A stretch of 64,000 bases of DNA from Amphiscolops sp. MND2022 (lineage: Eukaryota), in the NCBI GenBank assembly GCA_964187785.1, contig OZ076409.1, forward strand, positions 43,278,001 to 43,342,000, in the 5' to 3' direction. The notes beneath the pieces were generated by a model, which did not search any database, was not told where the DNA came from, and saw only the letters and a list, made by a program, of their open reading frames with translations. Within the stretch, counting starts at the first letter, position 1; each line of letters begins with the position of its first letter. The position numbers and the translations under genes were made by a program. Positions 6,044 through 63,659 of this stretch are shown here, piece after piece.

Positions 6044-6252
6044 CTAATCGAGATTTATAGCCCGAAATCAAATGAAAATGACCAAAATTGTTCTACCTAA
6101 TGTTACGTCAAGTACGAGGCACACATACCAGAGCTGGGACAATGCCTAGGTTGCTTTGACAGGAAACCATAGTCTCACTACAAGCCTAGACATCAGTTTT
6201 TCTCCCAAAGTGGTCTTCTCGAAGGACTTTGCTAACGTCAAGGAGACTCCTC

Positions 6253-7754
6253 TGTGATAATCTTCTCCTGTGCGGTCCTCATTTATGACCACAGAGTCAT
6301 TTAGATCAATGTATTGCATGCTCAAAGGTTGTATTGGCGTTCTAAGATCGTTTAAATTAGATGGTCTGAAAGGATTATCCTGTATTTCACATTCTCGATT
6401 TTCTGGCTCAGATGCGTTTTCTTCACCGTCCTCATTACTTGCGTATTTTGAAGTTCCTGCTCTGGGGGTGTTTTGTTCTGTTCGCCATATCGTTTGTTCG
6501 GTACGGATTGTGTTCTTCTGTTATTTTTCATCTCTTTCAGTATTTTCTCTAGTTTCTCATCCATTTCTTTCCTTAAGTTTGCTACTTCTTTGTTCGTTTT
6601 ATCTGATATTCTCTGGGTCCAAATTTGCATTTCATTTTCATTTTGTGTTCCACTGTCTAGAGCTATTTCTTCGTCCCTAACTGAACAACATTTTCAAAGT
6701 TACTTAAAGTTTCGATAACAGTTTCATTACCTTGTGATGTTTCTATTTCGGATGTGCTCAACTCTCTCTCTCAAGTGAGCGTGATTGTCCTCGTCTAGAT
6801 CTTCTATTTCTCTTGTTACCCATTTTAGTCAGGTTAAAATGCTGTTTCGGAGAGAAGAATTTCCATTGGAATGATGAGCAAAGTAGAATTAGGTTGAAAT
6901 AAAGTTGAAGAGAATGCACATATTGTTAAGTTATCAAAGTTGAAACAAAGGTTGTGAGGATGAGAAGAAAAGTTTAATCAGTCTGAAAGTTTTCTGTTGA
7001 CTGAATATTATTGGGTTTCTTACACTCCTTTTTGATTCGGCTTGAATTTAGCAGCATGACAACCAATTTGTGGAATGTCAAGGTTACATCACGATTATGC
7101 AATCACTAAAACTAGTACCCAATTTGATATAAAATAGGTTTGTAAGTTACATCACTTCTATAAATAGATTCCTGCATGACGAATATTTTCCTGCATTTTG
7201 ATTGGTCATTACACTGGCTGTACCAATCCGTTCATCGCTAATGAGAAAAATGTGGCAACACGTAGTATGACTCATATGTAGTGCAAGTGTTAATTCCAAC
7301 ATATTACCCCCATGCGTGATCAGATTGTTATGATGAATCATACTCTCAAATGCTATGATTAAGAATATTGAAAATGTGAATATGTACTGCAAGATGCTGC
7401 AAACTTAGTACAGCAATTCAATTCAAATACTTGAGTCAGTATGCGGTAATGTTACATAGAAGCCACGTATAATTTATTTTTTTCACAAGAATTCGCAATA
7501 AACAGTATTATGCGTCATGTAAGTTAACACCATGTAACATCTGGTAAATCTTGTATGAATGAGTATTGTTTTACAAATATGGCTAGCAACAATAGCAAAC
7601 AAATTCAGACATAGCTGATAATCAAAAGTTATTATAAATCCATACAATATAAGTTTCATGAAGCCATGAGTTTTCTCTGAATTCACTGCAGATGGGTGAG
7701 TCATTTGCCTTCAATGCTGCACCGCGGATCCAACGCAAGCTCTAGGCTGCGACA
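6253..7754 (-). repeat. 3' LTR of the large Gypsy element
   Basis: Near-identical to 20392-21891 (scattered substitutions, a few small indels); flanked on the left by TSD TCCTC. Confidence 0.88.
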
Positions 7755-8818
7755 GGCCAGCATTCTTGAAGCAAATGAGTGCTGCCTCGAACCCATCTAG
7801 ACAGGCACGTGATCTGATGTTTCTATCTCTCACTGTCTCGCCTGGGTATTCAGTTGCAGCTGTATAGGCCGCCAGAGCATCAAGGGCAACTTCGTTGTGT
7901 GTCCTGCCGCACCAGTGACAATTCCCCTGAACATGAGGCACAACAGGAGTGTTAAGTTGCCTTCGTAAGGGGTTCCTCGGTTGTTGTGCGTTGTTGTCAC
8001 TACGAGCAGGACCCACATCAGTCGTCTCCATATTGCTATGAGTGCCTTGGGTGTCCAGGTACAACTGACCATTGGCATTATAATAATATGCAACATTAAC
8101 AGGCCCATCTGGTTGCAATATCTGTGTACTCGGGTTGTATGAGGTTGTATCATGTTTTGAGCAGCTAATATTGGTAACTGGAATTGAGTGGCCGGTACAA
8201 CGAACTGGTTTACTATAGGTGTTTGCAGTATTCCTCCCCCGTTATATGGGCGAGTAAAGTTCGGTTGGGGAATCTCATGTGGAATTACCACGGGCGTAAT
8301 AGGTAAGGGTCTGATCGGCCCATTTCCTTAGGTGACAGCTGGAGGGATATTGCTGTCAGCATCAGACCGTATAGGTATTTGTCTTGCCGGTCTTTCGGCT
8401 CTTACAGCGGAACAGCCAACACAGGTCTACCATAGCTGTTTCTCACTGTTGCTCCCGCTCGATTCGAAGAATGAAATCGGTGAAATGTTGGGTAATTCAG
8501 TATCCTCTGAGATCATGCTCAGCACCTCTCTTTCGATATCAGTACCTGTGATATCAATCACAGAATCTTCTCTCAACTCAGGTTCGCTTACGGCGAACAA
8601 TCTTGCAGCATCTCCATTTACGAACGCAGTCATGGGGTCATTAAGTGGTCCCCGATTCTGAATCTCAGGTCTATGGGTTCTGAGTTAGGTTGTTCAGTCA
8701 GGAACTCCTCCCCAGAATCGCTCGAAATATTTATCAGTCCGGGAGAGTTTGTAGAAACAGACAGCATGTCTTCGTCAATCGTGAAGAGGTGAGAGTTTTT
8801 GGGGTATCTATTGTCCAT
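7711..8818 (-). pseudogene. Sense-strand accessory ORF of the Gypsy element (frameshifted, unknown function)
   Basis: ORF pieces 8630-8818, 8427-8633, 7830-8291 and 7711-8118 chain into one acidic/Pro-rich protein with a CHWCGRTH motif; the stop codon lies inside the 3' LTR. Confidence 0.55.
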
Positions 8819-9539
8819 TTGAGCTTGAAATTATCGACTGACTTGTTCCGTGAATATTCGCAGAAAAAACACTTGTCTCTTCTTTTCAGTTGGTGTATAT
8901 TTTCGCGGTTTTTAGGGGTGTCGTAAACAATCCTCGATGTCATCTTTCTTCTAACTTGCAATTTTCCTGGCGATTTCATAGCAGACTCAAAGTTATGCTC
9001 CTGTTTTTCATTTAAATAGCTCCATAACAAAATACAATCCACGTTGTGATTTCCGTTTATGGTGATAATCGTTCCAATTAGCACAACAAGATGAATTTTT
9101 TTTCGCAGCTTTCATATATGGCGAATAGAAGCGTCGACAAAGGCACATTAAACGATTATAAACAAATATGAATGAAATTTTCCATGATGAATTTTAAAAA
9201 CCCGGATTTTTTTCTGAATTTTACAAATTTTACATGCAAACCTAAATAAAATAGTGGGTAATATTAGGAATGAAAAGTTCATGGACGCAAAGTTTCTGTA
9301 TAATTGTGTATTTTACAAACTACGAAGTTTCTCAAAATTTAAGGTTCACACTCGTTTACTTTCTATTTCCATCTCATATTGTTTATTTCGGCATCATCAT
9401 GATGTCAACTGAATGATACACTGTTATCTTCATAGCAGTAATGCGATGAATAGGGTCATGAGATACTGTTTCTTTTTAGGTCAGCACCAGTTCAAGTTGC
9501 ACTGCAAGATGCTTTTCACTTCGTACTTTTCTTCAAACA

Positions 9540-9720
9540 GCCACTGGGGGCGGCGCATCATATATATGTAAATGAGCTTAGTTATACTGTATTAAATACC
9601 AATCTCTCTGGCAGGTTTGATCGGTTCCTAAATATTTCAGCCAATCAGCGCTCAGTATTTGCGCAAACATGTTAATGTAATTTGTTCAGCCGGAAGCGAC
9701 GCCACTTCTCATGTCCGTAT
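9540..9720. promoter_or_regulatory. Putative bidirectional internal promoter between the two cargo units
   Basis: GC-box-like gggggcggc (~9546), TATATAT (~9561), CCAAT (9599, 9641) and Ets-like CCGGAAG (9690) lie between divergent ORFs. Confidence 0.35.
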
Positions 9721-9913
9721 ACTGTATTTATCTTGGTCAGTTTCAAAGTCGTTTTGTCGTCAAATTTCTCTGAATTCTTCAATTCATCAAGTTTACGTTT
9801 TTATTTTGTAATCATAGTTTGTAGTTCAGCTTTCATTTTCAATAAACAATTTCCTTTTGAATTCGTGTTTACAATTCCATTTTTATTCCTTGCTTCGCTT
9901 GGTTATTTACCAA

Positions 9914-12900
9914 ATGGTGCGTTCGCGTTCTTCTTGTTCCCGCAGGAAAGCAACCCCCCCCCGCAGAGAAGAGCGGCAGTTGCGAGGAATCTCCGGTCAT
10001 CCACTACTGCGATAAGCTTGAAAATTGGTTGATTTTTCTGATTGACTCAGATAGTTCTTTTTTTTTCTTTGTGACGTCACGGATTTTAAATGCAAGTAAG
10101 CCAGACTCACATTTTAGTGTCGACTATCCTTTGATTTGTCAACTTCCGGTTTCTAAGTTTTAGGCAGAAATAATAATTTCCTGTTACTGATTTCTGTTAT
10201 CGACATCAGTACAATTCAGGATTTTTGTTTCAGATTCTTCCCCAACTCAGCCGCGAAGTAGAGTTTCTAAACCTTCTGATGCCAGCAAAGTGCCCGTAAC
10301 ACAACAAACTGTTTTACTGGAAAATTTCTCCCAACGGTCATTTCCGGATGATCTTCAACTTCCCCCAAGCTTGACCCCGGAAGTCCTTATCGAAAACAAC
10401 ATATCTGAGTTTGTCGACATTCTGGAGGAGTCAACTCACGCAGAACAACAGAAAGAAACAACTGCCAGTGATTGGGCTCAGCAAGGGATGAATTCTCTTA
10501 CTAACGCACCCGTAGGCGGGAAACTGTCTTGTACTTCATTTGTACAATGCGACATGCAACCCACACCAGTTAGGAAAGTCCAAGAAGAGGGAGTAAATTC
10601 TTCTGAACAAACTCCTGTGAGCAAGAATGCATCACCGTTCACTCGTTTCCTCACTCAACCTTCCTCCGTGAAGTCCAAGAAATCCATTTCTCCAGAACGA
10701 AAGAAAATTACACGGATCATCGATTCTCCGACTACCGGTAAAGACAGTCCTGGGGACACTGGGGAGGTAAGGCAGCAGAAGCGAGCACCCAGGTCCCGTC
10801 CAGGTTTGAAGATACGACTGGAACAAACTTGATCCAAGGATCCAGCAACACATTCACCTCCAAAAGGAGTTGCAGAACAATAGCTGAGGCTGAAACTCCT
10901 TCAAAACAAGCATACATTGAAGAGGATAGTGATGAGGAGTCGGAGGAGTCAGATGCTAGTACTGACTCAAGTTCTTCAGTTGAGTTGCTACCCAATGAAG
11001 AGGAAGAGTTCCCAAAAGCGAAACCGGTTAAACGAAAAAAAACAACAGGAAGAGACTTCTGCTCGGAAACGAACTAAGCCGCGACTTGTGCTAGCAGGGT
11101 GGATGTACCACAAATATCCAATCCTGAATTTCTTTGCCACCGCTCCCGCTGATGCTGCTAGATATCCACATAAATACCGGTGTCGGGTCTGTTTGTTAGA
11201 ATTGTCTCTGATGACAAAAGGTCCTTTGGAGATCCCTCACCACTACCGTACGGATGCCCATTCAATTAAAGAGCACCGAATACGAATGGAGACCCCGGGA
11301 CTCCCATTGTTCGACAAGAATCGAGAGAAACTGAGTGGCATGCCATTAAAGTATGCCAAAGAACGAGCTCGACGAGAGTACCCCGAAATTAGGAGATTAT
11401 TATCTGAGATTGGGACAGCAAGAACAGGCTGAAGTCGCTGGAGAAGATAACCCCAGTAATGAAATCTTCGCGCAACTGAATCTTCTCAAAATTGGCCTAA
11501 TGCATGGCGGCCATGCCATATCACAGCAATGGTGGCTTTATGGCATGATCTCGTTAAGGAAACAAAGACATCCGAAGCCATTGTTCAGCACCATAGGCGA
11601 CCACACCACTTTTTTGCAAGTATTAATCTGTTTTTTTGTAGTTAGGCAGGGTTAATCTTCTTTTTACTCAAAGAATGTTTGGTTTTTAAGGGCCTCGTCA
11701 CATACATGTTCCGCGAGCTACCTTCTTTCTGTGTGGATTCTATCGAAGCCAACGGCAGTTACTTCTCAAACTAACACAGTATGCGAACGAAACGCGCTTA
11801 TTTGTTCATTTCTGGGCAAGAAATTCCCTCTATGGTCTTTACATTGGAGTCTTCCCCGGGAGAGTCTATACACCTGGAACCCTCCTGCTGCTTTTGAGTA
11901 ACTTCTTTGCACTCATTGGGAAAGATGCTCATTTGTTTTTCAAGGCTGGCTTTGCTCCACGGATCGTCTGGACAGTGTCAAGAGTCCTCTCACAACGCAA
12001 GAAGTTTTGCAGGATCCCCTCATTCGATGCTGAGCACTTGGAGCAGACAATGTTGGTCCCATCTGTACAGATCTTGCATCGATTTGACTTTCGAAGCGTT
12101 CTCGACTTCTTACTTTTACGACTTCCTTCGGCTTGTAGCAGCCCCTGGTTATCATCACTGCCCGATTTTCAACACGTTAGAATCCCCATGTTTCATGCTC
12201 CATAATCTTTTTGTTATAAGAAGAAAAGTTTTACATCTTGATGTTTTACATCTAATGTTAATCCAAAAATTTCCAATTCTATTTGCTGCTCATTGCCCCG
12301 AATTCAATGTAGTTTCGGGTTTTTACAAGTTTCCGCAGTTAAAGCATTTTCTTGTTGTATTTTCAGCATTGTTGTATTTTCAGCATTTTTCTTTTTTCGA
12401 ATGAGGTATTATCTTTCTTTTATGCAGCATAAAGTTTGCGAAGTTTGCAGAATAAGGAAGCATAATAGGGTCATCCAATTCATTTTTCTTTACTTTATGG
12501 AGGTTATATGCGATGTTATGTAATGCGATTAGTCATTTGTTCATTTCTGATTTCTTTCTGTATTTCGTCATGTTTTTGCACGTGTTACTTCGAACTCGAT
12601 TTTTGTAACTAGGTTTCCAAAGACTTTTCGCACGTGCTACTAGATTCTAGTCAGTTCGTGACTCATCGTGACTTCTGTATTTTAGACTGTCACAACATTG
12701 GATTACGATCTGCCTCGTGCCGTTGAGATCATGAACCATTTGATTACTAACTGAAGTAAAATGATCCAACATATTCAATGCAGCAGACGGATTCCCTCCC
12801 ACCGTTCCCACATGCAAAAGGTTTGTTTCTAGTTTTCTTCTCCTTTCTATTATATCTGTTTTTCTAAGTTTCTTCGATTGTTTTACATAGGTGTTTCTTA

Positions 12901-14306
12901 TCCAACTTGATAATTGTTTTCATTTGCTCATTTTGTTTTAGCCCTCAGGGATGGACGATTTGCTTCTTCGGGACAAGGTGTTCGTTGTTCGTCTGTTTGT
13001 AACCCGGAACATTCTCAGTCAGTGTAAGTATTCCCTTCTTATACTCTGGTTTCTATTCTCTTTTTTGCATGTTAAACTGTTTTCCACTCCTAACCGCTCC
13101 TTGTTCTTGAATCGCCAACTCATTTTTCGTTCTCTATTTTAGACAACTCAACTCTTGGTGAGGTGTTCAATTCGAAATCTGGAGGCTTCAGACTTTACAA
13201 CCAGTTTTGTGTGTTTGTTTACACACAACTCCAGAAGATTTTGCCTGATTCCCATCTCGGGCCAATTTCCGATTGGGACGCTTACATGAAAACCAACATG
13301 GACGACCCCACATTGCCCTTCAAATCAGTAGATGACGTCTTGCTCGATCATGACCTGTCGGATTTGCTCAAGACAAGCAAGATTTCAACCCCTCGTCGGT
13401 TTGTGAGTCAGATTGTTCTACAAGTACTTCATCAAGTTATTGTTGACGAACGACATTGCTACTTCCGCTTTCGTACGGTGGCTTTCTGCCTTTGATGAGC
13501 CTGTCGTCAGAGTGGGTCGTGAGGCAGATTACACCGAAGCCATTCAACTCCTCTCCGGATATTTTGTCCAGCAAAAATGGATTGCCCCTAGTGTAAAACC
13601 TGTCATAGTCAGCGAGTACTGTTCACTCGTAACTAAACTGCGCTCTGACAAATTCCTTGCCGCCAAAGATTGGGTAGAGACATTTTCTTGCCATTACGAG
13701 TTACAGAGCCGGGCTGAACTGTTCGACCTGTTCAAAGTTTGTTGTGAAGCGCTTCGTGGGCCTTGCCTTGTTCCTCCTCCGTTTACCGTATCTATTCCTG
13801 GATTACGATCTGATGCATTCGAGTTTTCGTCCTGTGTCAGAAGTTTGCAGTGTTCTTGGCTTCCATCCAGAAGTGTGAAAATTTGTTTTTGTCTCCAACA
13901 GCTTTACCCCGTGCCTTTGAGCTTGTGGAGAGAGTGCCAGGACTTATCCTCAAAAGGAAATTTTCTGTGTGGAATCTCTTATCTTCCACTCATTTCCTCA
14001 AAACTGGCTTGTTGGCATCCTTGGAGGAATATTACGCAAAAAGTGGTTCGGTGGAGGCAAAAGGATGGATTACAACTGACGACAGGTCCAGCTTTTCCCC
14101 TGGGTACGTTTCTAGTACGAGCAGTAAAGACAGTTGCGGAGAGAAAGATTGACTCGACCCCTATTGTGAGTCCTGTGGTTCAGCGCCTGACTGAAGTCCC
14201 GGTTATTCCTGATCGCATGGTTTCGGGTTCAAAACAGAAGAAAAGGAGTAGTGCTATTGTCCTCTTGAAGATAACTCATCTCTTCCCGCAAAGGACGGTT
14301 TTCTGA
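9914..14306 (+). pseudogene. Antisense, intron-containing cargo gene of the Gypsy element; Zn finger plus hAT-transposase-like features
   Basis: Coding blocks ~10234-11619, 11691-12175, 12686-12820, 12942-13023 and 13143-14152/14306 are separated by T-rich gt...ag segments; motif YRCRVCLLELSLMTKGPLEIPHHYRTDAH; several frameshifts; first exon at 9914 is tentative. Confidence 0.65.
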
Positions 14307-14407
14307 TTTGTTTTAAGTACTTTTTGTTTGTATTTACTATTTCATTTTAAAAGAAAAGAAGAAGATGAGAAGTAAGACGACTTGAGATTTGTTGGTCTTT
14401 GTTTTTA

Positions 14408-17400
14408 TTATCTGTATGAGTCTGAAAAGTTAGAGTTTGGGTTAGGTCGTAAATTGTATTTTTCACCACGTGTATTGATAGGGGTTTTTTCTTTTTGAAC
14501 CTCATCATTTTTTTGATTTTCATCTGTATCTCCTGGGGATTTTTCTGCATCAATAGTAGCGTTAGGTTGTATCTCTTGCTGATTATCAATTTCATCAATT
14601 TCATTTCCTGCATTTTCGGTTGGGGTTTCTACATTAGGAACGGTAGTTTGTTCTACCGGGGCTCATCCACTGTTTTTTGACATTTCGAGGGAGGGTGGGC
14701 GGTTTATCGGTACATATACTTGTTTGTCATCTTGTTCGTTATCTGGGAGTTCTGTGTCAAATGGATCTGTTCCAAAGTTTGTACCCCATGTGTGGGCATA
14801 CAGGTCATCGTGTGTTACTAATATGTTGTCATTTTTTGCCAATCTGTTTCTCTGACGAAATTATCTGCTAGTGAAGCACTAGGTGTAAATTTTCTCAAAC
14901 GTATTCGGTGTAACAGTTGTGTTTTGTTTGTCCCTAGCCTTCGTACAAGGTAATTATTGTTAGGTAGGACTTTTTTGACTTTGTGAGGACCTATCCAACG
15001 GAATTCTTGGAACGGAATTTTCTGTTGCTTGTGTGTCTGCCTTCGGGTTCAGTATATAGCAATAGTCTGTTGTAGTAAGCGGTGCTGCTTTTGCCTTGCG
15101 GTCATAGTATGCTTTATATTTTAAGTATGACTGCATGATATTCTTTTTGGTTTGATCATTGAGTATCTCCATTCTGCGTTGTATTTCTTCTGCAATGTCA
15201 GTCTGTGGAGTATACCGTGGGTTAGGATTGTAGCCTAGCTTGTAGTCTAGAATGTTATGTGGTATCCTGCCGTGGAAAACACGGGTGGGTTCACATCCTA
15301 AGCTGGCATGATACGTTGTGTCGTAGTTTAAGACTGCCAGTGGTAGGAATTTGTGCCAAGTATTGCGAAATTCACCTGTAGCTGCTTTCAAATGTGTTTC
15401 TACTGTAGCAGGAGTGCGTTCTAGAATGCCGATTGTTTGTGCATGTTTTGTCGAAGCATGTTTTAGTTCAACTCCAAGCACTGCTGCTACTTCTCGGGTG
15501 ATTTGTGAGTTGAATTGAGTGCCCATGTCAGTTTATATGGTCGTTGGTAAATACGCGTGTTTGCACAAAATGTCCAAAATGACTCTTGCGACTGTAGGGG
15601 CTGTGATTCGGTTTGTTGGGTAAGCAAATAAATATCTTGAGAAGACATCAAATGCTGTTATGATGTTATCAAAACCTCCACTTGGTGGGAGATTAGGTAA
15701 GATGTCCATATGAAGAATATCTTCTGGACAGAGGTCCCATTCTGGACAATTTAGAAGTTCTGTTTTCAGTAAATCGTTATTGATTCGTTTGTTTTGAATG
15801 CACATCTGGCAATTATGTACCCAATTTTTGATGTGTTTTGCTAAGCATGGGTATAAGTATTTCTGTCGCGCTTCTTGTATCATTTTTGTTATTCCAGGGT
15901 GATTTGCATTGTGTCCATGCAATGCCTGTAGGAATTCTTCGAGAAGTTGTTTCGATACGAGTATTTGGTAGTGTGAGATTTGTCCAATATCATTGTAGTA
16001 TTTTCGTGCAAGAATGTCTTGGCGAATTTCGATGCGGGTTATGTTTTGTAGGTAATGTTGGTAGCCATTGTCTTGTGTGAACGCTGATTCATCAAAAGGT
16101 TCACCTTTTATTTTTGCTCTGAGATGGCGAAGGACTGGGTCATTATTTTGTTCGAGTCGGATTTTTGCGTTGTCTCGAAAGTGTCCTTCCCGATAATCTA
16201 TTGTTCCAGCAGTTGGTTTATGGAAATTTTGTAATTCAGTTGTTTCATTTTCCGGTTCATTGTGTGTTTATGTTTGTGACTGATTTCTGATATTGTCTTT
16301 TTGTTCCCAAAGTGTTTTTTTATCATTTTCATTGTATGGGTGGATGTGAATTTGTTCTTCTTCGGCTATGCCAGAGGATTGGATATTAACCTCGATAGCT
16401 TTTGTTTGTATGTCGTTGCGTAAATTCATTTCAAGGTTTTCTGTCGGATTGATTTCCGTTCGCGACAAGGTGTCCGCATTCATTGCTCCTGCTACGTGTG
16501 CTATGACGAAATTATACTGCAGGACGTAGTCGCATGCGTTCCATAGTGCTGGAGGAATGATTTTTGTTTGGAAAAATCTTGTGACTGCTCGGTTGTCAGT
16601 AAAAACAATTACGGGAAAAGTACTTCTCCACATTAGATGTCCATTTTCTGAGAAAGCAAAGAAGATAGCTAAAAACTCCTTCGCATATACTGACATTTTT
16701 AATTGGGTGGGGTTGAAAGTTTTTGAACCAAATGCAAGTGGGGCGTATGTTTTGCGTTTTGATTGTAGTTTTTGTTGAGGGTCGTCTTCAATCATAATCG
16801 CATATCCTGCAGCTAAAAAACTTGCATCTGGCATGACGATTAGTTGTTCGTCTTTGAGTGGTTGTTTGAGTGCCATTTGGCAAGATTGGAGTAGGAGGTT
16901 GTTCAACTGTTCAAAATTGTTTGTATGTTCAGTAGAAATGTAGAATTTATTGGTTTCTTTCAGCAGTTTGAAGAAAGGGGTGAGTCGTTCCGAAAGGCGT
17001 GGTATATAATTTCTGCAATAGTTCAGAAAACCAATATACCTTTGAAGGCCTTTTTTGGATTTTGGGAATTAAAGTTTCGCTAAGAAATCTTTGACTTTTT
17101 CTACTTGGGAAGAAACTCTTTCAGGTGTAATCGTTCTTCCCAGGAAGTCGACTTGTTTCACTCCAAAATGGCATTTTGACATTGACAATTTCAGACCTGC
17201 GTTCCGTATACAATCAAAGACTGCTCGGATGTTTATACACAGTTGTGACACTGTGTTTGCTGCAATTCCGATGTCATCGACGTATTGGGCGCATTGGTCT
17301 GCTTTGATGAGGGTGTCTAAGTATTCTTGTATGAAACTGGAGAATGCTGATAGTGATCGACTAAGGCCTTTTGCTAAACGCCGATACGCAAAGGTTCGGC

Positions 17401-19200
17401 TAGCAAAGTTAAAGGCCAACATCTGAATTGATTGGTAATCTGCCATCTGAAGGCATTGATACGCTTGTGAACAGTCAAGTTTGAAGAATAATTTCTTTCC
17501 TGCCATATGTTGGGCTGCATCGGAAAGTGTACTGACTGGGTGGTTGTTGTTTACGTAGTCTTCGGAGATGAGATTATTTATTTTGCGCAAGTCGACTAAG
17601 AGTCGCAATCGACCATTAGATTTTCGTTGCGCAGAATGGGACTTGCATATTTAGAGAAAGGTAGAGTTGTTATTATACCATACTTGTGAAGTAAGGCAAG
17701 TTCTACCGTGATGTCGTCTTTTAGGTTGATCGGTGTTGGAAGGCTTTGGCTATATGCTGGTCGGTCATCGTTTGGTGTGAGTTTGACTTTGAATTCTCTA
17801 TTTGTTCCAAAGTCAAACATGTGTCGGGCGAAAATATCGTGAAATTCAACTAGCAGTTTTTCCACTTTTTGTCGTTCAAACAGTGTGAGTGTTGTGTCAC
17901 TCCAGTCAAAATTGTCAAGAAATGTTTTGCGTGATTGTTCGTCGTCTTGTGGGTTAAGTTTTTCTAGTGTTTGAAGTTCCACTAGTTCATCAAATAGTCG
18001 TTTCTGAATGGGTGTGTATGTTGTGGGGTCTCCGGGTTGTTCCAGTGTTGGAAACCAGTTTTGTTCCGTTTTGTCTTCTTTGTTGTTTACTTTTAGAAGT
18101 TCATTGAGGTATACATCTGTAACTTCAGTATGTTGATGCATGATGATTGTTAGCATTGAAGGGTTGACTGACTTGATACATTTTAACTGTTCTGGGGTTA
18201 AAACTTGAAAGACGGCTAGATGTGTGTCTTTTATGATTGTACAGGGTAGTTTTGAGAAATTACAGATCTGGTATCCTACTGCGTTATTGTTGACTGTGCA
18301 GAGGGAAGACACAAGGAAAAGTGTGTCATGATCTTCAAGGTGCGTTGATGGCGTTACTATGCCCGTTGCATCCTGTTCTATCAAGTGTGGCATTCTGCTT
18401 GCAATAAGCATGGTTTCACCCGGTTGCAGTGTGTATGTTGCCTCTGCAAGTAATGGTGTTGATTGTCGTGTTAGAAGATTGTGATCTGGTTTCAACTGCA
18501 TTGATAAATGCGGAAAAGTTAATACTCCTTGTCGGATGTCGAAAATGGCATTGTTCCTTTTTAGGAAAAAAAGTCCAATGAGGGGATTCGGTATGACATT
18601 GAATTTTTCTTTGAACAAAAAATCTGCCACTTCAAATGTTAGGCAGACTGTTCCGATTGGCGTTTCCAATTATCCGTTTGCTACCAGGTTTTGGAAAATG
18701 GGTGCAGGACCTGTATCTGTTATTGCCTCGGGTGCAAGAAGTTTGATCTTATTTAGATCTTTTGTTCCAATATTGCACTCGTGAGAGCTCCAGTATCGAT
18801 TAAGCCGTCAAGTGTAAGCTTTTCAAAATCCATCGGGAAGTAATACATATGGCGTTTCTTTTTAGAGTCAGGTTGGTTGATAGGAGAAGCATTGGTATAT
18901 CTGTTTCTTTACTAATTGTAAGATGATTTTGAATTTCATCTTCTATGAGGGGTAGTTTTTGTGTTGATGCAGGTTCGATTGGTATTTCTGTCTTGTGTTT
19001 GGAGAGGTTCAAGATTGTTTTTCGGAAGAGGTTCTGGTAATTTTTGTGGTGAGGTTTCGTGTTCAGATTCAAACAGATTTTCTGGTTTTTTTTCGTAACT
19101 TATGTCAAGATGTGTGGTTATGTATCTGTCAGGGGCATCTCTGTATATTTCATACAAATCGTCCTCTGATTCGTTTTGTTGAGTTCCTGGAGTCTGAGAG
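14408..19200 (-). pseudogene. pol: Gypsy pol (protease, RT, RNase H, integrase), frameshifted
   Basis: LIDTGA protease (~18800); RLLVDLRKIN, LDCSQAY, YVDD RT (17069-17608); DAS...KEFLAI...TDN RNase H; HPG...CQMC and MDI...DVFSRY integrase; ends YNLRPNPN...YR*. Confidence 0.93.
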
Positions 19201-19393
19201 TCGGTGTGTTGTGTGAAAGTGTTTTTGTTGGGTGAGGAGTTGGATGCTGCCAGTCATCTTTCTCCTCTGATTTTGTGGGGCGTGGGTTCATTAGTTTAAA
19301 TCCTTCGATGATGAAGGTTGTTGACGGGGTGCTTTCGGGTTAATATGTTTGTTGGAGTTTTGTAACTTTCAATGAGTTTTTTCTGTGCTTCGG

Positions 19394-20963
19394 TTAGTGT
19401 CCACTTCGGGGGCGGTTTTCCATATTTGCTCCAAAGTAGCATGTTGATTCCTGATGTCCTGGTGCGTTACAATGCGTACAGCGTATGGCATCAGGGTCTT
19501 CTTCCAGCTTACGACGTTTTGCTAGTTTAGCGCAGTCTGCTGCCTTGTCCCCCGTAATTTTACAGTAAAGATTTTGGTCATCTTGCAATGTATTGTTGGG
19601 CACTGTTTTTGGCGTTTGTTGCTTCTTTTTTGTTGTTGCAGTTTTCTGCTGCGTTAGTTTGTCTTCTGCTTGTTTGTTGATTGCCGTCAATTGCGTTTTA
19701 AGGCCAGTGTCTTCTGATTCAAGTCCGTTTAATTCCGTCTCACGTTCGAGATGTCGGACTATTTGCTCGTATGTTACTTTCTCAAGGTAAGCTTGATTAA
19801 TAGAACGTTTCAAGTGTGGCGGCATTTTTGCATATAATAGACTTGCTATCATTTGTGATGCAATGTCACCGAAGGCTTTTTCGGCGCTTTCTTGTAATTC
19901 TTTTAAGAAGTCTGGTAGTTTTTGGCGTTCCGGGTCAAAAACCAAGCGATGAAATCTATGTTTTGCGGACGCACTAGATTCAGGCTTGACATATTTTTTA
20001 CGTAACACTACCAGTATGTCTTCAAGCGTAGTTGTTGGTGTTCGTTGGATGTTTTTGAATGTTTTCAATGCTAATCCACGCAAATGTGCGTGAAAATGAT
20101 TTATTTTCAATTCCTCAGTTAATGTGGGTTGCATTTGGAGTGTTGTGTGGAAAAAATCTTCAAAAAATTCAAATTTCTCGTTCTTTTTCAATTCACTTTT
20201 GAATGTGAGTGTATTTTTTGGGTGAAAGAGTGATGGTTGTGTGTTGCGGCTTGCCAGTTTCTCAATAGCCATTGCTATTTGGTTAACGGGGTCTTGCTGA
20301 ATATTAAGTGGTTCAGCAATCAGATGTCCATTGTGTGTTGTTGTGTTGTTTGAGTTTTGACGATGAAGTGGTTTGATAGCTCCTGTCACCATGTGATACT
20401 CCTCTCCTGTGCGGTCCTCATTTATGACCACAGAGTCATTTAGATCAATGTTTTGCATGCTCAATGGTTGTATTGGCGTTCTAAGTTCGTTTAAATTAGA
20501 TGGCCTGAAAGGATTATCCTGTATTTCACATTCTTGATTTTCTGGCTCAGATGCGTTTTCTTCACCGTCCTGTCCTCTTTACTTGCGTATTTTGAAGTTC
20601 CTGCTCTGGAAGTGTTTTGTTCGCCATATCGTCTGTTCGGTACAGATTGTGTTTTTCTGGTAGTTTTCATCTCTTTCCGTATTTTCTCTAGTTTTTCATT
20701 CATTTTTTTCCTTAGGTTTGCTACTTCTTCGTTCGTTTTATCTGATATTCTCTGGGTTCAAATTTGCATTTCATTTTCATTTTGTGTTCCACTGTCTAGA
20801 GCTATTTCTTCGTCCCTAACTGAACTAACATTTTCAAAATTACTTGAAGTTTCGATAACAGTTTCATTACCTTGTGATGTTTCTATTTCGAATGTGCTCA
20901 ACTCTCTCTCTCAAGTGAGCGTGATTGTCCTCGTCTAGATCTTCTATTTCTCTTGTTACCCAT
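19394..20963 (-). pseudogene. gag: Gypsy gag; the N-terminal ~188 codons lie inside the 5' LTR
   Basis: ORF 19394..20464 with a C-terminal CTHCNAPGHQESTC knuckle; the frame extends upstream to ATG 20963 (MGNKRNRRSRR...) across a 2-nt GA slip, one TGG>TGA stop and a 5-bp duplication. Confidence 0.8.
20375..20391 (-). promoter_or_regulatory. Primer-binding site (PBS)
   Basis: TGGTGACAGGAG... directly after the LTR terminal ...TATCACA; resembles a tRNA-Leu-type PBS (TGGTGTCAGGAG), but the tRNA identity is not verified. Confidence 0.65.
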
Positions 20964-21891
20964 TTTAGTCAGGTTAAAATGCTGTTTCGGAGAGAAGAAA
21001 TTCCATTGGAATGATGAGCAAAGTAGAATTAGGTTGAAATAAAGTTGAAGAGAATGCACATAATGTTAAGTTATCAAAGTTGAAACAAAGGTTGTGAGGA
21101 TGAGAAGAAAGGTCTAATCAGTCTGAAAGTTTTCTGTTGACTGAATATTATTGGGTTTCTTACACTCCTTTTTGATTCGGCCTGAATTTAGCAGCATGAC
21201 AACCAATTTTTGAAATGTCACGGTTACATCACGATTATGCGATCACTAAAACTATTACCCAATTTGATATAAAAAAGGTTTGTAAGTTACATCACTTCTA
21301 TAAATAGATTCCTGCATGACGAATATTTTCCTGCATTTTGATTGGTCATTACACTGGCTGTACCAATCCGTTCATCGTTAATGAGAAAAATGTGGCACCA
21401 CGTAGTATGACTCATATGTAGTGCAAGTGTTTATTCCAACATATTACTCCATGCGTGATCAGATTGTTATGATGAATCATACTCTCAAATGCTATGATTA
21501 AGAATATTGAAAATGTGAATATGTACTGCAAGATGCTGTAAACTTAGTACAGCAATTCAATTCAAATACTTGAGTCAGTATGCGTTAATGTTACATAGAA
21601 GCCACGTATAATTTATTCTTTTCACAAGAATTCGCAAAAAACAGTATTATGCGTCGAATAAGTTAACACCATGTAACATCTGGTAAATCTTGTATGAATG
21701 AGTATTGTTTTACAAATATGGCTAGCAACAATAGCAAACAAATTCAGACATAGCTGATAATCAAAAGTTATTATAAATCCATACAATATAAGTTTCATGA
21801 AGCGATGAGTTTTCTCTGATTTCACTGCAGATGGGTGAGTCATTTGCCTTCAATGCTGCACCGCGGATCCAACGCAACCTCTAGGCTGACA
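20392..21891 (-). repeat. 5' LTR of the large Gypsy element
   Basis: Direct repeat of 6253-7754; adjacent to the PBS; TSD TCCTC on the right. Confidence 0.88.
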
Positions 21892-22596
21892 TCCTCATTT
21901 AGAGCTCCGAGGCAACGTGCCAGCACCTTTGAAGTCCGGACACGTCCCCCAAGCACGTGAAAAACTATTCCTATATACTGCCGAGGTCCAAAAAGTCAAT
22001 CAGCTGAAATTAATTATATTGGATCTAAAGGTGATAAAAACAAACGATCTAGCATATCACACATCACCAAATACTTGAAATCTGTAGCAAAACAATAAGA
22101 AATATTACAATAAGCCGATATTACATCTACAACAGTCTCAGTGAGTTTTGTGTCTCCATTTGCACAAAAGTTGCACATTTCTTCAGATCTCGGGGGTATC
22201 TGTATTCTCTTCTGAACTCAAGATGGTACTCACTGGGGCTGTGTTTCTCATTCGGGAAAGATATGTAGTCTTTCTCTGTGAATTCTGGGAGTTTTTCAGT
22301 CTTTTTCTGCTTATAGGGAAACCTCTCTGTGTGTTCCTCGTGAACCGTCTTCTTGACTGATTTTGGGTACTGTCAGGTCGGCCATGTCAAAACTAAAATT
22401 TTTCAAAAAAATTGAACAGGGGCCTTGAAACTGGTGGACGTTACATAAGGTCTACAACAAGGTACACTTTATGAAGTGTGTTAGTCTATCGATGAGCGCA
22501 CGAGGCTCATATTCCGAATGTTGTAGTTTCCGACCTACCAATTCTCGAGTTTCTACAAAAGAATGTCGTATAGGGACTAGCATATTACTTGCACCA

Positions 22597-23081
22597 GGTA
22601 TGCGGAAAACTCGTCGAAAACAGCTCGCCGAATGCAACTCGTCGAAAACAACTCGTCGGCGGAAAACTGGTCGAAAATTAACTCGTCGAATGATAATTAA
22701 GTGCAAACTCGTCGAATTCTTACAGGTTACCCACTGCGATGATTCAGTTCTAATTATGATTTAATTTTCGTTAATTGATGCGTAAAATCTTAAGTTTTAC
22801 GCAGAATATAGCCCCTTTTTAGTTATATAATTGCTTGAAAGGATTCACTTTTATAGTTTACAGTGTAATACTTCATAATAATTTAGAACTCCATAACACG
22901 GTATGATCACAAAGCTAGCACTATATTTGCCTGAGATTATTTTCTATTCTTGCGACGAGTTTTCCGCCGGAGAATTTTCGGCGAGTTGCTTTTCGACGAG
23001 TTTTCCGCCTAGTATTTTCGACGAGTTGTTTTCGGCGAGTTGTTTTCGACGAGTTGTTTTCGACGAGTTTTCCTAGATTCC
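22597..23081. mobile_element. Foldback MITE (Mutator-like) with ~15-bp subterminal repeats
   Basis: Inverted arrays of aaaactcgtcg / cgacgagtttt; CTTGCACCAG duplicated at 22588-22597 and 23081-23090. Confidence 0.8.
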
Positions 23082-23716
23082 TTGCACCAGAAAGCAGCCA
23101 AGAAGAATGTATGCTTGCAAACAAAAAAATAATATTGCGAATTCTAAAAAAAATATTTCAACATTAGCATTTGACATTTATTAGAGTCCTGAAAACAACT
23201 ATTTCGAAATCAAAATTAGTCTTGCCATTGTGGCATTTCTGACAGAAAGAATTCGTTTCACTTCATCAAAAATGCAAAGAAAAAGTTGAGTTTTTTTATG
23301 AGTACTAAAGCATTCAGTTTTCAACCTTTCTTTGATTAATATAAAAGTGATCTCGATTGATTTGAATACATTTTGTATAATTAAAAAAATTCCAATGTAA
23401 CCTTGACAAATTTCTATGCCTTGTCGTCCTACTAAACTTCTGAGCCCTGAGCGTCACCTTTTGATTGTTCACCACAATTGATGGTCTTAAAAGCCCTTGC
23501 TAGGCTCGAAAAAAACTGTCGCGTGGGTTATTCGGGGCTTTCGGAAATCAAAATGACGCAACTATACGAGACTATTTTTTCTCCAGCCTCATTCCAAGTT
23601 TTTAACTTTTCTGGTCAATTTGTTAACTTTCAAACTTTTCTGGTACAATTCTAAAATGCATTTGAAATGTGCCAAAACTGATTCAAACAATTTACAAGCT
23701 ATATGATACCGAAGGG

Positions 23717-24540
23717 CGGGAGGCGGAAATTTCGTCGCCAGAAATTTCGTCGTCAGAAATTACGTCGTAGGAAATTTCATCGTATTAGCAAATCCAGAAA
23801 TTTCGTCGTCAGAAATTTCGTCGTCTGAATTTTCGTCGTATTGATTAAAATTAACAGCGTTAACGAAAAGACATCATTTTAATTATTCAATTATTAAGTT
23901 ATTAAGTTAGATCTTAAGAACACGTTTCAGTTTGACAACAAAATGGGATCAAAAAGTTAACTGCATCTAAACAACTCATCAAGAAGGTTATTGAGCAATG
24001 GTATACCTATTTTCAGTCCTACCGGTGGAACTACTCACCGGGGCTTCACAATACAATTTAGGCTTGTTCCAGGGGTGAATTTTTGTTTTTTTAATCATTA
24101 TTTTAAAAATCATGGTAATTTTTGCTTTAAGTGTCGAAACGAATTCGTGTTGGGGGGGGGGGGGTGGGTTTAAGACAAAAGGTGTATCTGGGGGTATAAA
24201 GAACATGGTCCGAAACTGTTTCTCTCAAAACCATAGCTAAAAGTAGTCAATGATAGCAATAATTGCACAATTATCGATAAATATTAAGATAATTATCAAG
24301 ACTCGATAATTATTAGGACTCAATGATAAAACGATTCCTAAAAGATTAGAGAAAATGCGACGGTTTATAGAACGTAATCACCGACGACGAAATTTCTGAC
24401 GACGAAATTTCCGACGACGAAATTTCTGGCGACGAAATTTCTGACGACGAAATTTCCGACGACGAAATTTCCGACGACGAAATTTCCGACGACGAAATTT
24501 CTGACGACGAAATTTCCGACGACGAAATTTCTGGTAATCT
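23717..24540. mobile_element. Foldback MITE with 15-bp tandem arrays (gacgacgaaatttc[t/c])
   Basis: Left array 23725-23840 and right array 24381-24532 are inverted; partial flanking duplication gaaggg; exact ends uncertain. Confidence 0.7.
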
Positions 24541-26812
24541 GAAGGGAAGGTCTTCTTTTTGTTTTCTGTTGTTTTCGCTTCAGAAAATGCCTTTAATAGT
24601 ATGAAAGTTCGCAAAAGTCTACAGAACGTCAAACAACTTTCAGTTTTGGTTTTTTTGACCCTCAGGAAGGGGCCCCAATTCGGCCGTTGAGCATCTCATT
24701 GGCTGTTTCAATTTTCTTCATTGAGTGAAATCAATGCTTTGACAGTTCGGCTGGATGAAAACGCTTTCTGTTAACAAAGAAATCTTGGCACGGGGCTATT
24801 CCATGTAGCAGAGGGAACTGTTTTCTTAACAATTGATTGTTTTCCAAAAGAACTGACTGTTAACTAGGGTGGACATAATGCCATCAATGTGATAATTGCT
24901 AAATTTTGCTTATTTTTGATAGGATTTTACAAAAAAACGTCTATTTTGTTAGAATAGTCGTTATTAATCCTTTTCCAGTCAGTTTTCAAGTCTAAATAAC
25001 TTATGACGCCATCCAACGCTTCAAACTAATTTCTGATACGAAAAGCAAAAATATATATATTTCATCAGTTGTTTGCGTCCTCATTCGTTTGTTTTGTACG
25101 AACAGCACGTTGTTATATCTTTTTATAGACAGCGGTTGTATTCTGTGTTTGGTTTCAGGACGCAATTCCAAACATAGCCAAGTCATTCCAGAAGGCGGCT
25201 ATTAAAATTTAAATGCACTTTGAGGCTACGGACGAATTGATTACATGCATACAGGGAAAACTGGTGAAAGAGACGGCTGAGTTTATTCGCTGATTTTAAA
25301 AAAAAACTACCATCCGTCAGAGATACAAGATGGGTTTCTTGGTTGAGCTGTGCCCTTTGTTATGCCAGAAATTTACCAAGAATCCGCGAAATCGTCAAGT
25401 CTTATGATGGGGATGGGCCTGCATTGACCAGCAATATTTGAAACTCGGAAACAAAATGTGCTGCCTGCTCAGTTGCCATACTCAAAAAATGCATTGGCAC
25501 AAACATTGCGTTGGAACAATTGTCCCAATGCTAAAGAAACTATTAGACTCTGATCGCTCTTTTAAGCCCGGAAATATTGTAAAACATTTTACTTTGTATT
25601 TTAGAACAAATATACTGGCTTAAAAAAGTTCCTAATTGCAGTATTTTTCTATTTAATGCAAAGACAGAAAATGCCATATTACGAAACGTTAGGGCCATTT
25701 TTCTCGAACTTCAAGCGCCAGAAAAACCACCCGACCGAAAACAAAAAACAACAAAAACCTGAAAAAGAAGCGTTTTCAGAATTCAGTTAAAAACCGTTTC
25801 GTATCTTTTTTTTTCTTTCAAAGACAAAAGTTTTTTATGATTGCGAGGAGTAAAAAAATTTTACTCGAAACAATCTTTTCATTGAACTCCTATTGGACAG
25901 TATCACTAAAAAATTTTTAGAAACAGCTGATACTGAACACTGAAATAATTTCTCAAACAACTTCTCCGTTCAAATGAACCCATTGGTAATCTGTTTTAAG
26001 TAGTCTGGTACCAAAGAAATCAACAGCTCGGTAATATGTCTGCAATTGAAAAACTTCTGACTTTCTTCGAAGGTTCCGACTGTTAGTTTTTCTCTGTCTT
26101 TGCTGCATAACAGTTACACAATGAGAACATATGTGAAACTCGTCTACCATTTCCAGACTTTTTATAACAGCCAAAACAGATGAAACGGCTTCAGACGTTA
26201 TTCCTGCTCACCTGGCAACCAAATGAGGGAAATCAAGGTGCTTGTGCTTTCAACAGCTAATACGAGGGTGCATAAAAGAGTTTTAACATTCCTTTCGTCT
26301 ACGGGGACATGTATGAAACTCACGATACCTCCTCCGTTGACTCTGTATGTGATTTATCCCAAACTATTTTAGATTTCAAACATTACCTTGGTTGAGAAAA
26401 AATACAATCCTCGCAAGAATGCTACGAGATGACATGAAACTTGTAAAATTCTGCCAGATTCTGCCACAGTAGTTCTTTTCTCAACGATAAACATTTGTTT
26501 GAGAGAACGTGGAATGAAAAAAAAAACAAGCTTTCATTTGAAGCCAGGAGATTTTTCAGACCCAGTTGAAACATTGTCTTCAACGTTCCGTGTACTTGTG
26601 AATTTTTTTCTGCAAATTTTTTCCCCCATTCCCACATTCACTAGTTTAGTTTCCCGAGGCCACCAACAGACGCTTCGCTAAGTGAGTCCTAGGTCGAGCT
26701 GGAAAACGGGGAAACAACAGTTATCACGTTGTGATCGAATGACTGCAAGTTTTTTACAAGCAGTAGTAGAAGAATGCGTTCAACAAAGTTTGCAAAGTCA
26801 AGAAACAAATTC

Positions 26813-42156: not shown

Positions 42157-42210
42157 AATGTTAACTGATGATGAATGATGTTACATTCGAAAAGCTTTTT
42201 AATTCAACAC
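42157..42210 (+). ncRNA. Minimal type-I hammerhead ribozyme (PLE pseudo-LTR, copy 1)
   Basis: ttaa-CTGATGA-t-GAATG atgtta CATTC-GAAA-AGCT-TT-ttaa: core boxes, stem II, palindromic stem III (AAGCTT) and stem I ttaa/ttaa. Confidence 0.75.
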
Positions 42211-44622
42211 TTGTCTTTTTATTCCTCAATTTTACAATATCAAGTGTGTTACCCCGAAGATTCCTATACTGGGAATTGGCAAGGCGTGATGTACTGAAGC
42301 AATACCGCGCCTATGAAAAGAAATATATTCAGTTACAACTTTCAATACAACGGATTTGTTTTTTGGAGTCATGTGTTTCTCTTCGTCTTATCCCGAGTTT
42401 CTTGAAGTTCAGAGTTCCGGCCAATGGATGTTTTAACGAATCGACTGTCCTGAACTTCCAAGGAAAACTATTGCAACAAGAGCTGAAGAAGGCAAAGGAC
42501 GATCAGAAACGTGTTGAAGTAGAGCTGAAACGACGAAGGGATGCAGTTAAATTTGACGTGCCTGAAAAATTACATCCTTCATTGTGGTTTCATTTGAAAG
42601 AATTGTGTAAAAAACGTGTACAGGAGGCTAAAGCAAGGCACCAACGAAAAATTGAAAATGCCAGTGCTATGCAAGATAAGCCCCTTTTGAACACAACCGG
42701 CTATCTGAAAATTCCTAGACGACATTAAAGTACCTGATTATGTACGTGAGTTGCTCAGATATGGACCCAAACACCCATGTCGGACCTCTTTTCAAGAAGA
42801 ACAGTTTTTGGCCAACATAGACCTACTGTTGGAAAGAGCTTCCATGGAAAAAGTACATCAGGATGCTCGCAATAAAATCAATGCCCTCACGGTGGGGTAT
42901 GTAATGAAGTGCAAGTATAGAAAGCCTGATAAAAACATCAAAAGTACCAGACAGTGGTTGAAAGACCAGGGCATACTGGCAGTGCCGTATGACAAGGGTA
43001 CCGGTTTTTGCCTTATGAAAGCTGAGACATACAATCTTAAGGTCAGAAAATTGCTTGAAGGCCCCCAGTTTGTTCCTTTGGCACCAAAGAAAAAAGATCT
43101 GACGTTAATCGAGGAAGTTCGTGTTTGTAATGTGCTTAAAACGCTTCAGTCTGATGGTAAGATTGACCAAAAACTGTTTCAAGCAGTTAAACCCATTGGA
43201 TCACAGCCTGCATGTTTCTATGGTCTCGCGAAGGTCCACAAGAAGGTTATTCCGCTGCGACCTATCGTCTCAATGCCCGGGTCAGCATACCACCCATTGG
43301 CAAAGCAGTTGGCAAATTGGATATCAAAGCTACCGGAGGCCTCAATTTCTTGCAACGTTGGTCAGGTCATGAGACAACTCTCGGACATCCAACTTCAATC
43401 TGATGAACAGTTAGTTAGCTTGGATGTAGAGGGCCTTTCCACCAATGTCCCTGTCAACGAGGCCATTGAATACACAACTGAGCTCATGTATTCGCCCAAC
43501 CATGACTTTGCACCACCAATTGATCAAGATACCTTTGTGAAGCTGCTGAAACTTGTATGTGTTGATGTGGTGTTCTCTACCCATCAAGGTTACTTCAAAC
43601 AAGTGGACGGTGTAGCTATGGGCAGCCCCTTAGGTCCCCTTCTCGCAAATGTGTTCATGTCAAAATTTGACAAGGATCTAGGCCTCTTCAGTTCCTTCTA
43701 TTATAGGTATGTGGACGACATACTGAGAACTATGTTGGTAGGAGGAGGAGAGTACCTGTTGAATTTTGCGAACACAATGCATCCAAATCTCAAGTTCACA
43801 TTGGGAAGTGAGGATAATGAAGGTGGACTATCATTTTTAGACATGCGTGTGGAGCATTTTGGGAACAAAATCGAAGTCTCATGGTACACCAAAAAAACGG
43901 ACACTGGTGTTGTTCTCAACTATAACAGCGAAGCACCAAACATTTTCAAGTGTGGCATCGTATCAGGTTTCGTACATCGCATATTCAATACATGCTCTTC
44001 GTGGCTTAGATTTCACGATGGACTGATGAAAGCACAGAAGATTTTACGTGACAATCAATATCCCACTAGTTTTATTGAAAAAATTACCAGTCACACGCTG
44101 GACAACATTTTGGCACCGGTGAAGAGTGGTCTTCCTGCGAAGCCGAATCGTCCGAAGGCTGATCTGAACATCGGTTTAAAGTTAATGTACAATGGGCCGT
44201 CATCCATTACCTTTGCCAAGAATCTGAAGAAGACCCTAGAACCATTGGCATCACTCAATGTCTACTTTACCACCACGAAATTGAGGTCAAACTTGCCTAG
44301 CCTGAAAGCAATTGTTCCTAAACCTATTCGGAGTCATCTTGTATACGAAATGAGTTGTTCTGCTTGTAGTGGAACCTATGTTGGACAAACCATCCGACAT
44401 TTAGACGTCCGAATACACGAACACAAGAACAAAAGCACGCCAGTGGGCCAACACTTCTCCAATTGTGGATTGGAATTGAGCTTGGAAGACGTGCGAATAC
44501 TGGCAACTGAACAGCATCCCAAAACCCTATTGGCACTTGAAGCTGTACTCATTCGTAGAGAGAAGCCCATCCTCAACACGCGCGACGAATTTAGAAGCCA
44601 CACGCTGAACTATGTTTTTTAG
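42168..44622 (+). CDS. Penelope RT / GIY-YIG endonuclease polyprotein with one frameshift near 42710
   Basis: DKG, YGLAKVHK..PLRPIVS, GVAMGSPLGPLLAN, RYVDD and LSFLD RT motifs; VYEMSCSACSGTYVGQT...RIHEH GIY-YIG; ORFs 42168..42728 and 42751..44622 are joined by a 1-nt shift. Confidence 0.9.

Positions 44623-45215: not shown

Positions 45216-63659
<18,444 letters not shown>

Follow-up and report, generated by a model that had tools for sequence, protein, structure and literature searches.

A Gypsy retrotransposon lineage of Amphiscolops sp. with two accessory genes, one of them a putative captured transposase

When a retrotransposon is found with two additional genes inside it, do those genes belong to it, where did they come from, and what might they do? 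The question is raised by a 15.6-kb Gypsy copy on the minus strand of a 64,000-nucleotide stretch of the Amphiscolops sp. MND2022 genome (assembly GCA_964187785.1, contig OZ076409.1, positions 43,278,001 to 43,342,000; hereafter the window, from whose first letter all coordinates are counted). Between pol and the 3' long terminal repeat (LTR) of this copy lie two genes arranged head to head, termed A (antisense to the element) and S (sense). The evidence supports a cargo that is integral to the element and not nested within it. The fuller reading, which we judge to be evenly poised between right and wrong, is that both are fixed and selected accessory genes, that A is a captured, dead hAT-type transposase and S a SUMO binder, and that the pair serves nuclear self-regulation or anti-silencing.

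The cargo and its backbone

The LTRs (5' copy at 20392..21891, 3' copy of 1502 bp at 6253..7754, both minus strand) have TG...CA ends and are 96.6% identical, with 1441 matches and 50 mismatches, and comparison of the flanks reveals a 5-bp target-site duplication (TSD), TCCTC, on either side of the element (6248..6252 and 21892..21896). The pol gene (14408..19339, minus strand) carries a protease motif and, in Gypsy order, Pfam matches to reverse transcriptase (RT; E 2e-20), RNase H and integrase, and ends in a stop at 14408; the protease motif, D-[TS]-G, was observed directly in relatives of the window element. A preliminary description of this locus, made from the letters alone, had proposed TSD-bounded LTRs around gag-pol, an antisense gene ending about 100 bp from the pol stop and a sense open reading frame (ORF) ending inside the LTR. 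All of this holds, with gene A ending at about 14306 and gene S stopping at 7711 within the 3' LTR. Of the two divergent units it drew, at 9914-14306 and 9084/8818-7711, the antisense gene and the sense start at 8818 stand and the 9084 frame is unsupported.

Further copies were sought in the 1.07-Gb genome, where first-look searches returned 6,874 candidates for RT and 11,014 for one divergent gene A protein, figures that are not copy numbers. Thirty of 39 non-self RT matches, chosen by pol alone and extracted as 20-kb loci, formed a pol-selected set. Gene A homology was present in 28 of these 30, 27 times at the expected position and once (E07) beside a duplicated pol end, and gene S was at its expected position in 25. 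The two loci without gene A (E16, E27) are interrupted copies. Three further sets were selected by cargo. All 20 loci found with cargo DNA contain LTR sequence and 12 contain RT; five or six of them are deletion derivatives of 6-7 kb that have kept gag and the spacer between A and S and lost most of A. An A protein of 45% identity led to 20 further loci, termed group D (groups D, E and F being defined by gene A); the three main A exons lie antisense to pol in 20/20, S is present in 19/20 and an LTR pair in 18/20, with LTR identities of 92-100%. Finally, three A proteins of far greater divergence served as queries for ten more loci, all of which show the identical layout, A beside an antisense pol (10/10); nine constitute group F, with a pol that is about 50% identical, and one belongs to group D, and LTR identity is 98.6-100% in the nine loci with a value. 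Stand-alone cargo was found in none of the 50 cargo-selected loci.

The cargo is considered integral because it occupies the same position in pol-selected copies and in lineages with roughly 50%-identical pol, is under purifying selection and never stands alone among the 50 cargo-selected loci, and this agrees with the preliminary view of an integral accessory system in a complex LTR-retrotransposon lineage. A recent nested insertion, or an independent transposon, is by contrast largely refuted and extremely improbable. Gene A does look transposase-derived and two pol-selected loci do lack it, as such an account would have it, but both of those loci are interrupted copies, and a recent arrival would not share one position across pol lineages so far apart, lack terminal inverted repeats (TIRs) and catalytic residues, and be held by purifying selection. 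Inverted repeats flanking gene A did not rise above shuffled background in any of 10/10 elements, and the earlier report that the cargo has no TIRs is thereby upheld.

Because pol is about 50% identical across lineages and LTR pairs are up to 100% identical, the lineage is, judging from these divergences, both old and recently active. Gene A is probably present in other genomes as well, since two relatives retrieved from a search of 1.8 billion proteins match this genome at only 24-30% identity (about 100 scored candidates each). Another database protein, P0022, fuses the LTR-encoded gag N-terminus to the zinc-finger region of gene A and may be a chimera or a rearranged copy.

Non-autonomous forms were also observed. 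RT and integrase are missing from the 6-7 kb derivatives (L081-L090, L097-L098), which still carry LTRs, gag and the spacer, along with the final 250 bp of gene A; 5/6 short derivatives cover the spacer at 74-100%, and the sixth covers part of it. In some non-autonomous forms it is the cargo that persists beyond gag: young elements with LTRs 99.9-100% identical (L193-L194, L139-L140) retain A and S after losing most of gag.

Pairwise ratios of nonsynonymous to synonymous divergence (dN/dS), which the preliminary description had named as a check on the cargo, reveal purifying selection on both A and S at values near those of RT; these values come from non-independent pairs, and for A the majority of them are saturated. 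Specifically, in group D at dS 0.5-1.5, dN/dS is 0.05, 0.06 and 0.06 for three A exons (3, 5 and 5 pairs), 0.05 and 0.16 for two conserved S parts (31 and 19 pairs) and 0.06 for RT (46 pairs). Among older group E copies, at dS 0.15-0.5, the corresponding values are 0.22-0.33 for A, 0.10-0.13 for S and 0.18 for RT.

The splice structure of gene A is likewise conserved. Six exons are found in groups D and E, and in the window copy these lie on the plus strand at 9914..10011 (a basic exon 1 beginning MVRSRS, with a degenerate donor in this copy), 10234..11619, 11691..12175, approximately 12686..12820, 12942..13023 and 13143..14306. Counting only copies in which a motif anchored the junction, the donor of exon 1 is present in 22/24 copies, the GT of exon 2 in 28/28 (E), 12/12 (D) and 7/7 (F), the donor of exon 3 in 30/34 and 12/14, that of exon 4 in 11/11 and 5/5, the acceptor before exon 5 in 20/21 and 5/5, and the AG before exon 6 in 31/31 and 16/16. 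The intron between exons 3 and 4 is apparently missing in group F. Such introns would survive reverse transcription because gene A is antisense to the packaged genomic RNA and would hence be unspliced there.

While the cargo is fixed in position, gene A is far from uniform. RT and A trees were built for 37 of 44 loci (7 were left out for short ORFs) with no reference RTs. In both trees a single branch sets off each of groups D, E and F from the remaining loci, with support of 95/96, 95/92 and 100/100 for RT and 99, 78 and 100 in a quick tree of A; only the RT result counts as a test, the groups having been defined by A. The branch separating F from D and E measures 0.35 in RT and 3.6 in A, so that of the two things the preliminary description would have looked for in other copies, a shared position is found and a divergence like that of pol is not, A's being some 10 times greater. 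Gene A thus tracks RT at depth and not at shallow depth. Within group E, 417/487 pairs with an RT distance below 0.10 have an A distance above 0.25, and A has reached saturation at synonymous sites where RT has not. In one example, a pair of copies shares 88-96% identity in LTR, S, pol and gag and 46-67% in the A block, whose edges are sharp. Because near-identical backbones carry divergent A blocks with sharp edges, old A variants have been placed on young backbones through recombination, by block exchange.

Origin of gene A

Neither gene A nor gene S has a significant Pfam or PDB sequence match, and the origin of A must be approached through its parts. Exon 2 (10234..11619, broken in the window copy) encodes a long low-complexity region, a basic patch, a C2H2 BED-like finger and a helical region; the finger is a conserved CxxC...H...H motif downstream of the basic patch. 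Aligned with BED fingers of host hAT transposases, it scored a weak hhalign probability of 27% (E 6.5e-4), a level reached by 0/25 block shuffles, and Pfam BED did not match gene A. Exon 3 (11691..12175, frameshifted) was modeled from 14 sequences with a mean predicted local distance difference test (pLDDT) score of 64 (63-89 over residues 1-100), and its predicted order of three strands, helix, strand and helix is the RNase H topology. In Foldseek searches with this model, the Hermes transposase took ranks 1, 2, 4, 5, 6, 8 and 10 (best E 6.6e-3, template modelling score 0.39), with no match at E 0.001 or better, and many of the top structures are RNase H-fold proteins; in VIA, Hermes scored Z 5.1-5.3. 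Exon 6 (13143..14306, frameshifted) encodes a helical domain resembling the Hermes insertion domain, followed by a Ser/Lys-rich tail. When its model (31 sequences, pLDDT 70) was compared with 48,161 chains in VIA, the top match was Hermes 368-569 (Z 5.0, root-mean-square deviation 4.1, 142 aligned residues). The Hermes matches are colinear, that of exon 3 beginning at 149-153 and that of exon 6 lying downstream.

A hAT-type source is favored because these three separate parts of gene A point to one protein type in the right order. Several results weigh against it. Every structure score falls under the trust level of its tool; for exon 3 in VIA, Hermes shares its score level with ISCth4 (Z 5.2) and small L38-type ribosomal chains; the second VIA match for exon 6, at Z 4.4, is less than one Z unit below Hermes; and Foldseek returned no match with the exon 6 model. 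Nor do exons 3 and 6 have any profile similarity to 21 host hAT fragments, which we take to be mostly of the Ac type, in keeping with the lack of any Pfam or PDB sequence match. A search for other hAT subfamilies in the genome, using a motif and PF14291, found no match and is uninformative. The host itself encodes many Ac-type hAT transposases (L171-L190), several of them with open frames of 600-700 aa.

On balance, it is fairly probable that gene A is of hAT origin, and clearly probable that it derives from some DDE transposase. A different source would be, for instance, a host gene with an RNase H fold or a DDE transposase of another kind (Mutator/IS256-type or other), gene A still having a comparable regulatory role; this appears unlikely. 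The tie of ISCth4 with Hermes and the missing sequence link to host hATs are what such a source would predict, but Hermes comes first for exon 6 with ISCth4 outside its top 50, is ranked repeatedly by Foldseek, and is joined by a BED-like finger in A.

Whatever its precise ancestor, the protein would no longer be an active transposase. The positions expected to be catalytic were taken from the models and from the Hermes layout, and gene A has no conserved acidic column at any of them. At the end of strand 1 an acidic residue occurs in at most 6/24 copies; the end of strand 4 holds Gly in 17, Asp in 5 and Asn in 2 (n = 24); and the 20 residues beyond the last helix (201-220) are acidic in at most 8/33. 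The CxxH motif was found in 0/24 copies, and the C-terminal PF05699 domain is absent from gene A in Pfam scans. Gene A would therefore share with Hermes a predicted order of zinc finger, helical region, RNase H core and helical insertion domain, and differ from hAT transposases in having no DDE triad, CxxH, PF05699 or TIRs and in being kept by a retrotransposon and not by a host. ZBED and DAYSLEEPER are host-domesticated forms of hAT transposases. As predicted from the models, gene A resembles a transposase-derived DNA-binding protein and lies outside the active hAT transposases. It probably started as a DNA-transposon insertion into the lineage's ancestor; such a transposon would have inserted antisense, in the interval from pol to the LTR, and then lost its ends.

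Two other leads for the cargo were set aside. A RasGAP match in the ESM Atlas scored 0.83, below the tool's 0.9 level, and a PPR match was to a designed repeat protein and disappeared with a deeper alignment. With exon 3, the ESM Atlas gave no usable match.

Gene S and the proposed function

Gene S (7711..8818, minus strand; frameshifted in the window copy) starts at 8818 and ends 14 codons inside the 3' LTR. In relatives with open frames its product has about 345-390 aa and is acidic and rich in Pro and Ser. At the LTR edge, LSQP plus 14 residues to the stop are encoded in 20/21 group E loci scored, and LS[QRH][PS] in 34/34 loci scored. An upstream start at 9084 was rejected, with stops in 14/29 homologous alignments. 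With a maximum hydropathy of 0.58-0.98, S is not membrane-like. An env identity for the cargo was rejected likewise, no segment of transmembrane strength occurring in seven ORFs (maximum 19-residue hydropathy at most 1.39), just as had been reported at the outset. Groups D and E share a C-terminal CxxC and helical domain, to whose profile the S proteins of group F have no match.

What all three groups share is a motif, [VIL][VI][DNG][ILV]SS followed by acidic residues, as in LINISSDSGEE, VVDISSGSE and VIDISSDEE, and it is retained where little else of S aligns. In the window copy, a pattern scan places LINISSDSGEE close to the N-terminus (8705..8737, minus strand). A six-frame scan of 81 loci gave 64 matches, 61 of them S-type in 59 loci, with two S-type matches lying in neighboring inserted elements; the pattern was written after viewing S proteins, so the scan speaks to conservation and specificity, not function. 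The motif, with its hydrophobic core and acidic residues, fits the consensus of a SUMO-interacting motif (SIM), and its sequence makes it likely that gene S binds SUMO. A candidate host SUMO locus we take to encode a ubiquitin-family protein and not SUMO itself. The LTR-borne part of gag in groups D, E and F contains a stretch, NVSSVRDEE, that loosely resembles the S motif.

SUMO-SIM contacts are described as recruiting SetDB1/Wde in piRNA (PIWI-interacting RNA) silencing (10.1101/533091) and as being needed for the silencing of endogenous retroviruses by DAXX (10.64898/2026.03.21.713205). It is tempting to suggest the following scheme. A and S would be expressed from internal promoters, placed by the anatomy in the shared spacer (8819..9913); A would bind element DNA via its zinc finger; S would engage SUMO-marked silencing complexes; and together, in the nucleus, they would sustain transcription of the element's own or cognate copies, while the host's response would favor exchange and turnover of A variants.

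The closest working analogy is VANC of the VANDAL elements (PMC6719617, PMC13547354), likewise a TE-encoded, family-specific and fast-diverging accessory gene; it occurs in Mutator elements of plants, is related to MAIN and depends on tandem motifs, and such arrays are weak or absent here. It is doubtful, though conceivable, that a class I animal element has domesticated a DNA transposase and a SUMO-binding partner as a two-gene, sequence-specific anti-silencing system. Equally tentative is the corollary that the A half is swapped in an arms race with the host, which would make the cargo the equivalent of VANC in an animal class I element, assembled from class II components.

Certain observations sit poorly with this scheme. 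Repeated target motifs of the VANC type exceeded the shuffled maximum in only 6/41 non-coding regions, all in groups D and F and none in the group of the window copy. Gene A has been exchanged without the LTR, a poor fit to strict LTR-sequence specificity. The SIM assignment relies on a match to the consensus, and expression, localization, DNA binding and SUMO binding are predicted properties of A and S. In some group D copies, the words TGCGGA and CGCATA are above shuffled background in the spacer and LTR (for L149, in the spacer, LTR and long intron) and are candidate binding sites.

The scarcity of motif arrays is easier to accommodate if gene A, as a dead derivative of a transposase, works on the element's cDNA or RNA, for example in integration targeting, nuclear import or Rev-like export, and not on silencing. 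This alternative, which we regard as unlikely, accommodates the same fold and selection evidence, would employ the basic patches of A exons 1 and 2 and of the tail, and has a reported precedent in the Rev-like export of Cer1 CERV (PMC10309623); it leaves unexplained both the fast divergence and block exchange of A and the conserved SIM-type motif of S. Less probable still is a self-limiting or exclusion module in which A and S would repress sister copies, SUMO recruiting silencing where the anti-silencing scheme would have it blocked. SIM-bearing proteins such as DAXX do recruit repressors (10.64898/2026.03.21.713205), and divergent, exchangeable A alleles could be immunity types; against it stands the great abundance of the family, with 6,874 first-look candidates for RT and 11,014 for A.

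Related systems and other features of the window

In Gypsy elements of plants and fungi, extra ORFs in antisense are already known (PMC7264820, PMC11963269). In the plant Retand, Grande and RIRE2 elements described there, additional ORFs are antisense, as is the gene beside pol here; the present lineage differs in its animal host and in having a six-exon spliced gene head to head with a sense gene, and the TRP28 domain, a Retand-type feature, had no match in Pfam scans here. According to PMC7264820, such antisense ORFs are without similarity to other TEs, whereas gene A is predicted to be transposase-derived; the same 2020 review considered TE insertion as a source of antisense ORFs and found no supporting similarity. 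Among animals, Oikopleura Tor, bdelloid ORF3s and errantiviruses (PMC4402516, PMC5408684, PMC13524379) are also Gypsy-type elements with an extra gene after pol, and Tor env can use an internal promoter. In these sources, the extras are env, DEDDy, GDSL, coiled-coil or membrane proteins, and with PMC6431247 the animal extras are env-like or enzymes; A and S are not membrane-like. On one acoel, PMC6451197 gives Gypsy abundance.

Searches of the literature, in a collection that lacks most subscription journals and Repbase, turned up no account of this lineage and no LTR element with an accessory gene derived from a transposase; repeat libraries may hold these elements unannotated. The lineage is a candidate case for the origin of antisense extra genes in LTR retrotransposons. 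If the reading is true, one transposon class has domesticated the enzyme of another and kept it, introns included, across a deep radiation. Reviews give plant examples of counter-silencing factors such as VANC, and the present elements offer two concrete proteins and many natural alleles for asking whether animal retrotransposons encode such factors.

The remaining features of the window copy concern its ends and its decay. The gag gene (19294..20963, minus strand; frameshifted) starts within the 5' LTR and reads through the primer-binding site (PBS), TGGTGACAGGAG (20380..20391, minus strand), which immediately follows that LTR and lies within the gag frame. About 190 gag codons lie inside the LTRs of groups D, E and F (e.g., window 6466-6823), and the 3' LTR carries a copy of the 5' part of gag at the end opposite U3, the U3 end carrying the final 14 codons of gene S. 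The 15-mer LTR-PBS junction of the window element recurs 60 times across the 81 loci. The sequence AAGAATGCTGGCC precedes the 3' LTR; the subfamily of the window copy has no clear polypurine tract there, and the stretch, which overlaps S codons, is more purine-rich in some group F copies. Alignment to the natural ORFs of a relative shows the window copy to be dead: gag, pol, A and S all contain stops and frameshifts, with many of both in pol.

Elsewhere in the window, a plus-strand ORF at 28804-29307 matches the 5' part of gag from group F LTRs (TRSQKRKAVAE...) and probably belongs to this lineage as a solo LTR or a fragment. Two plus-strand ORFs of 187 and 637 aa at 42165-44622 carry RT-like and GIY-YIG-like motifs in a long open frame, which we take to be a Penelope-type element. 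At 62543-63100 (plus strand) lies an ABC transporter exon with Walker A and LSGGQ motifs, probably of a host ABCC-type gene. Finally, small elements at 23708-24551 and 22604-23073 have inverted arms of 15-bp tandem units and resemble miniature inverted-repeat transposable elements or foldback elements, and a perfect, spacerless palindrome of 104 bp occupies 1446-1549.

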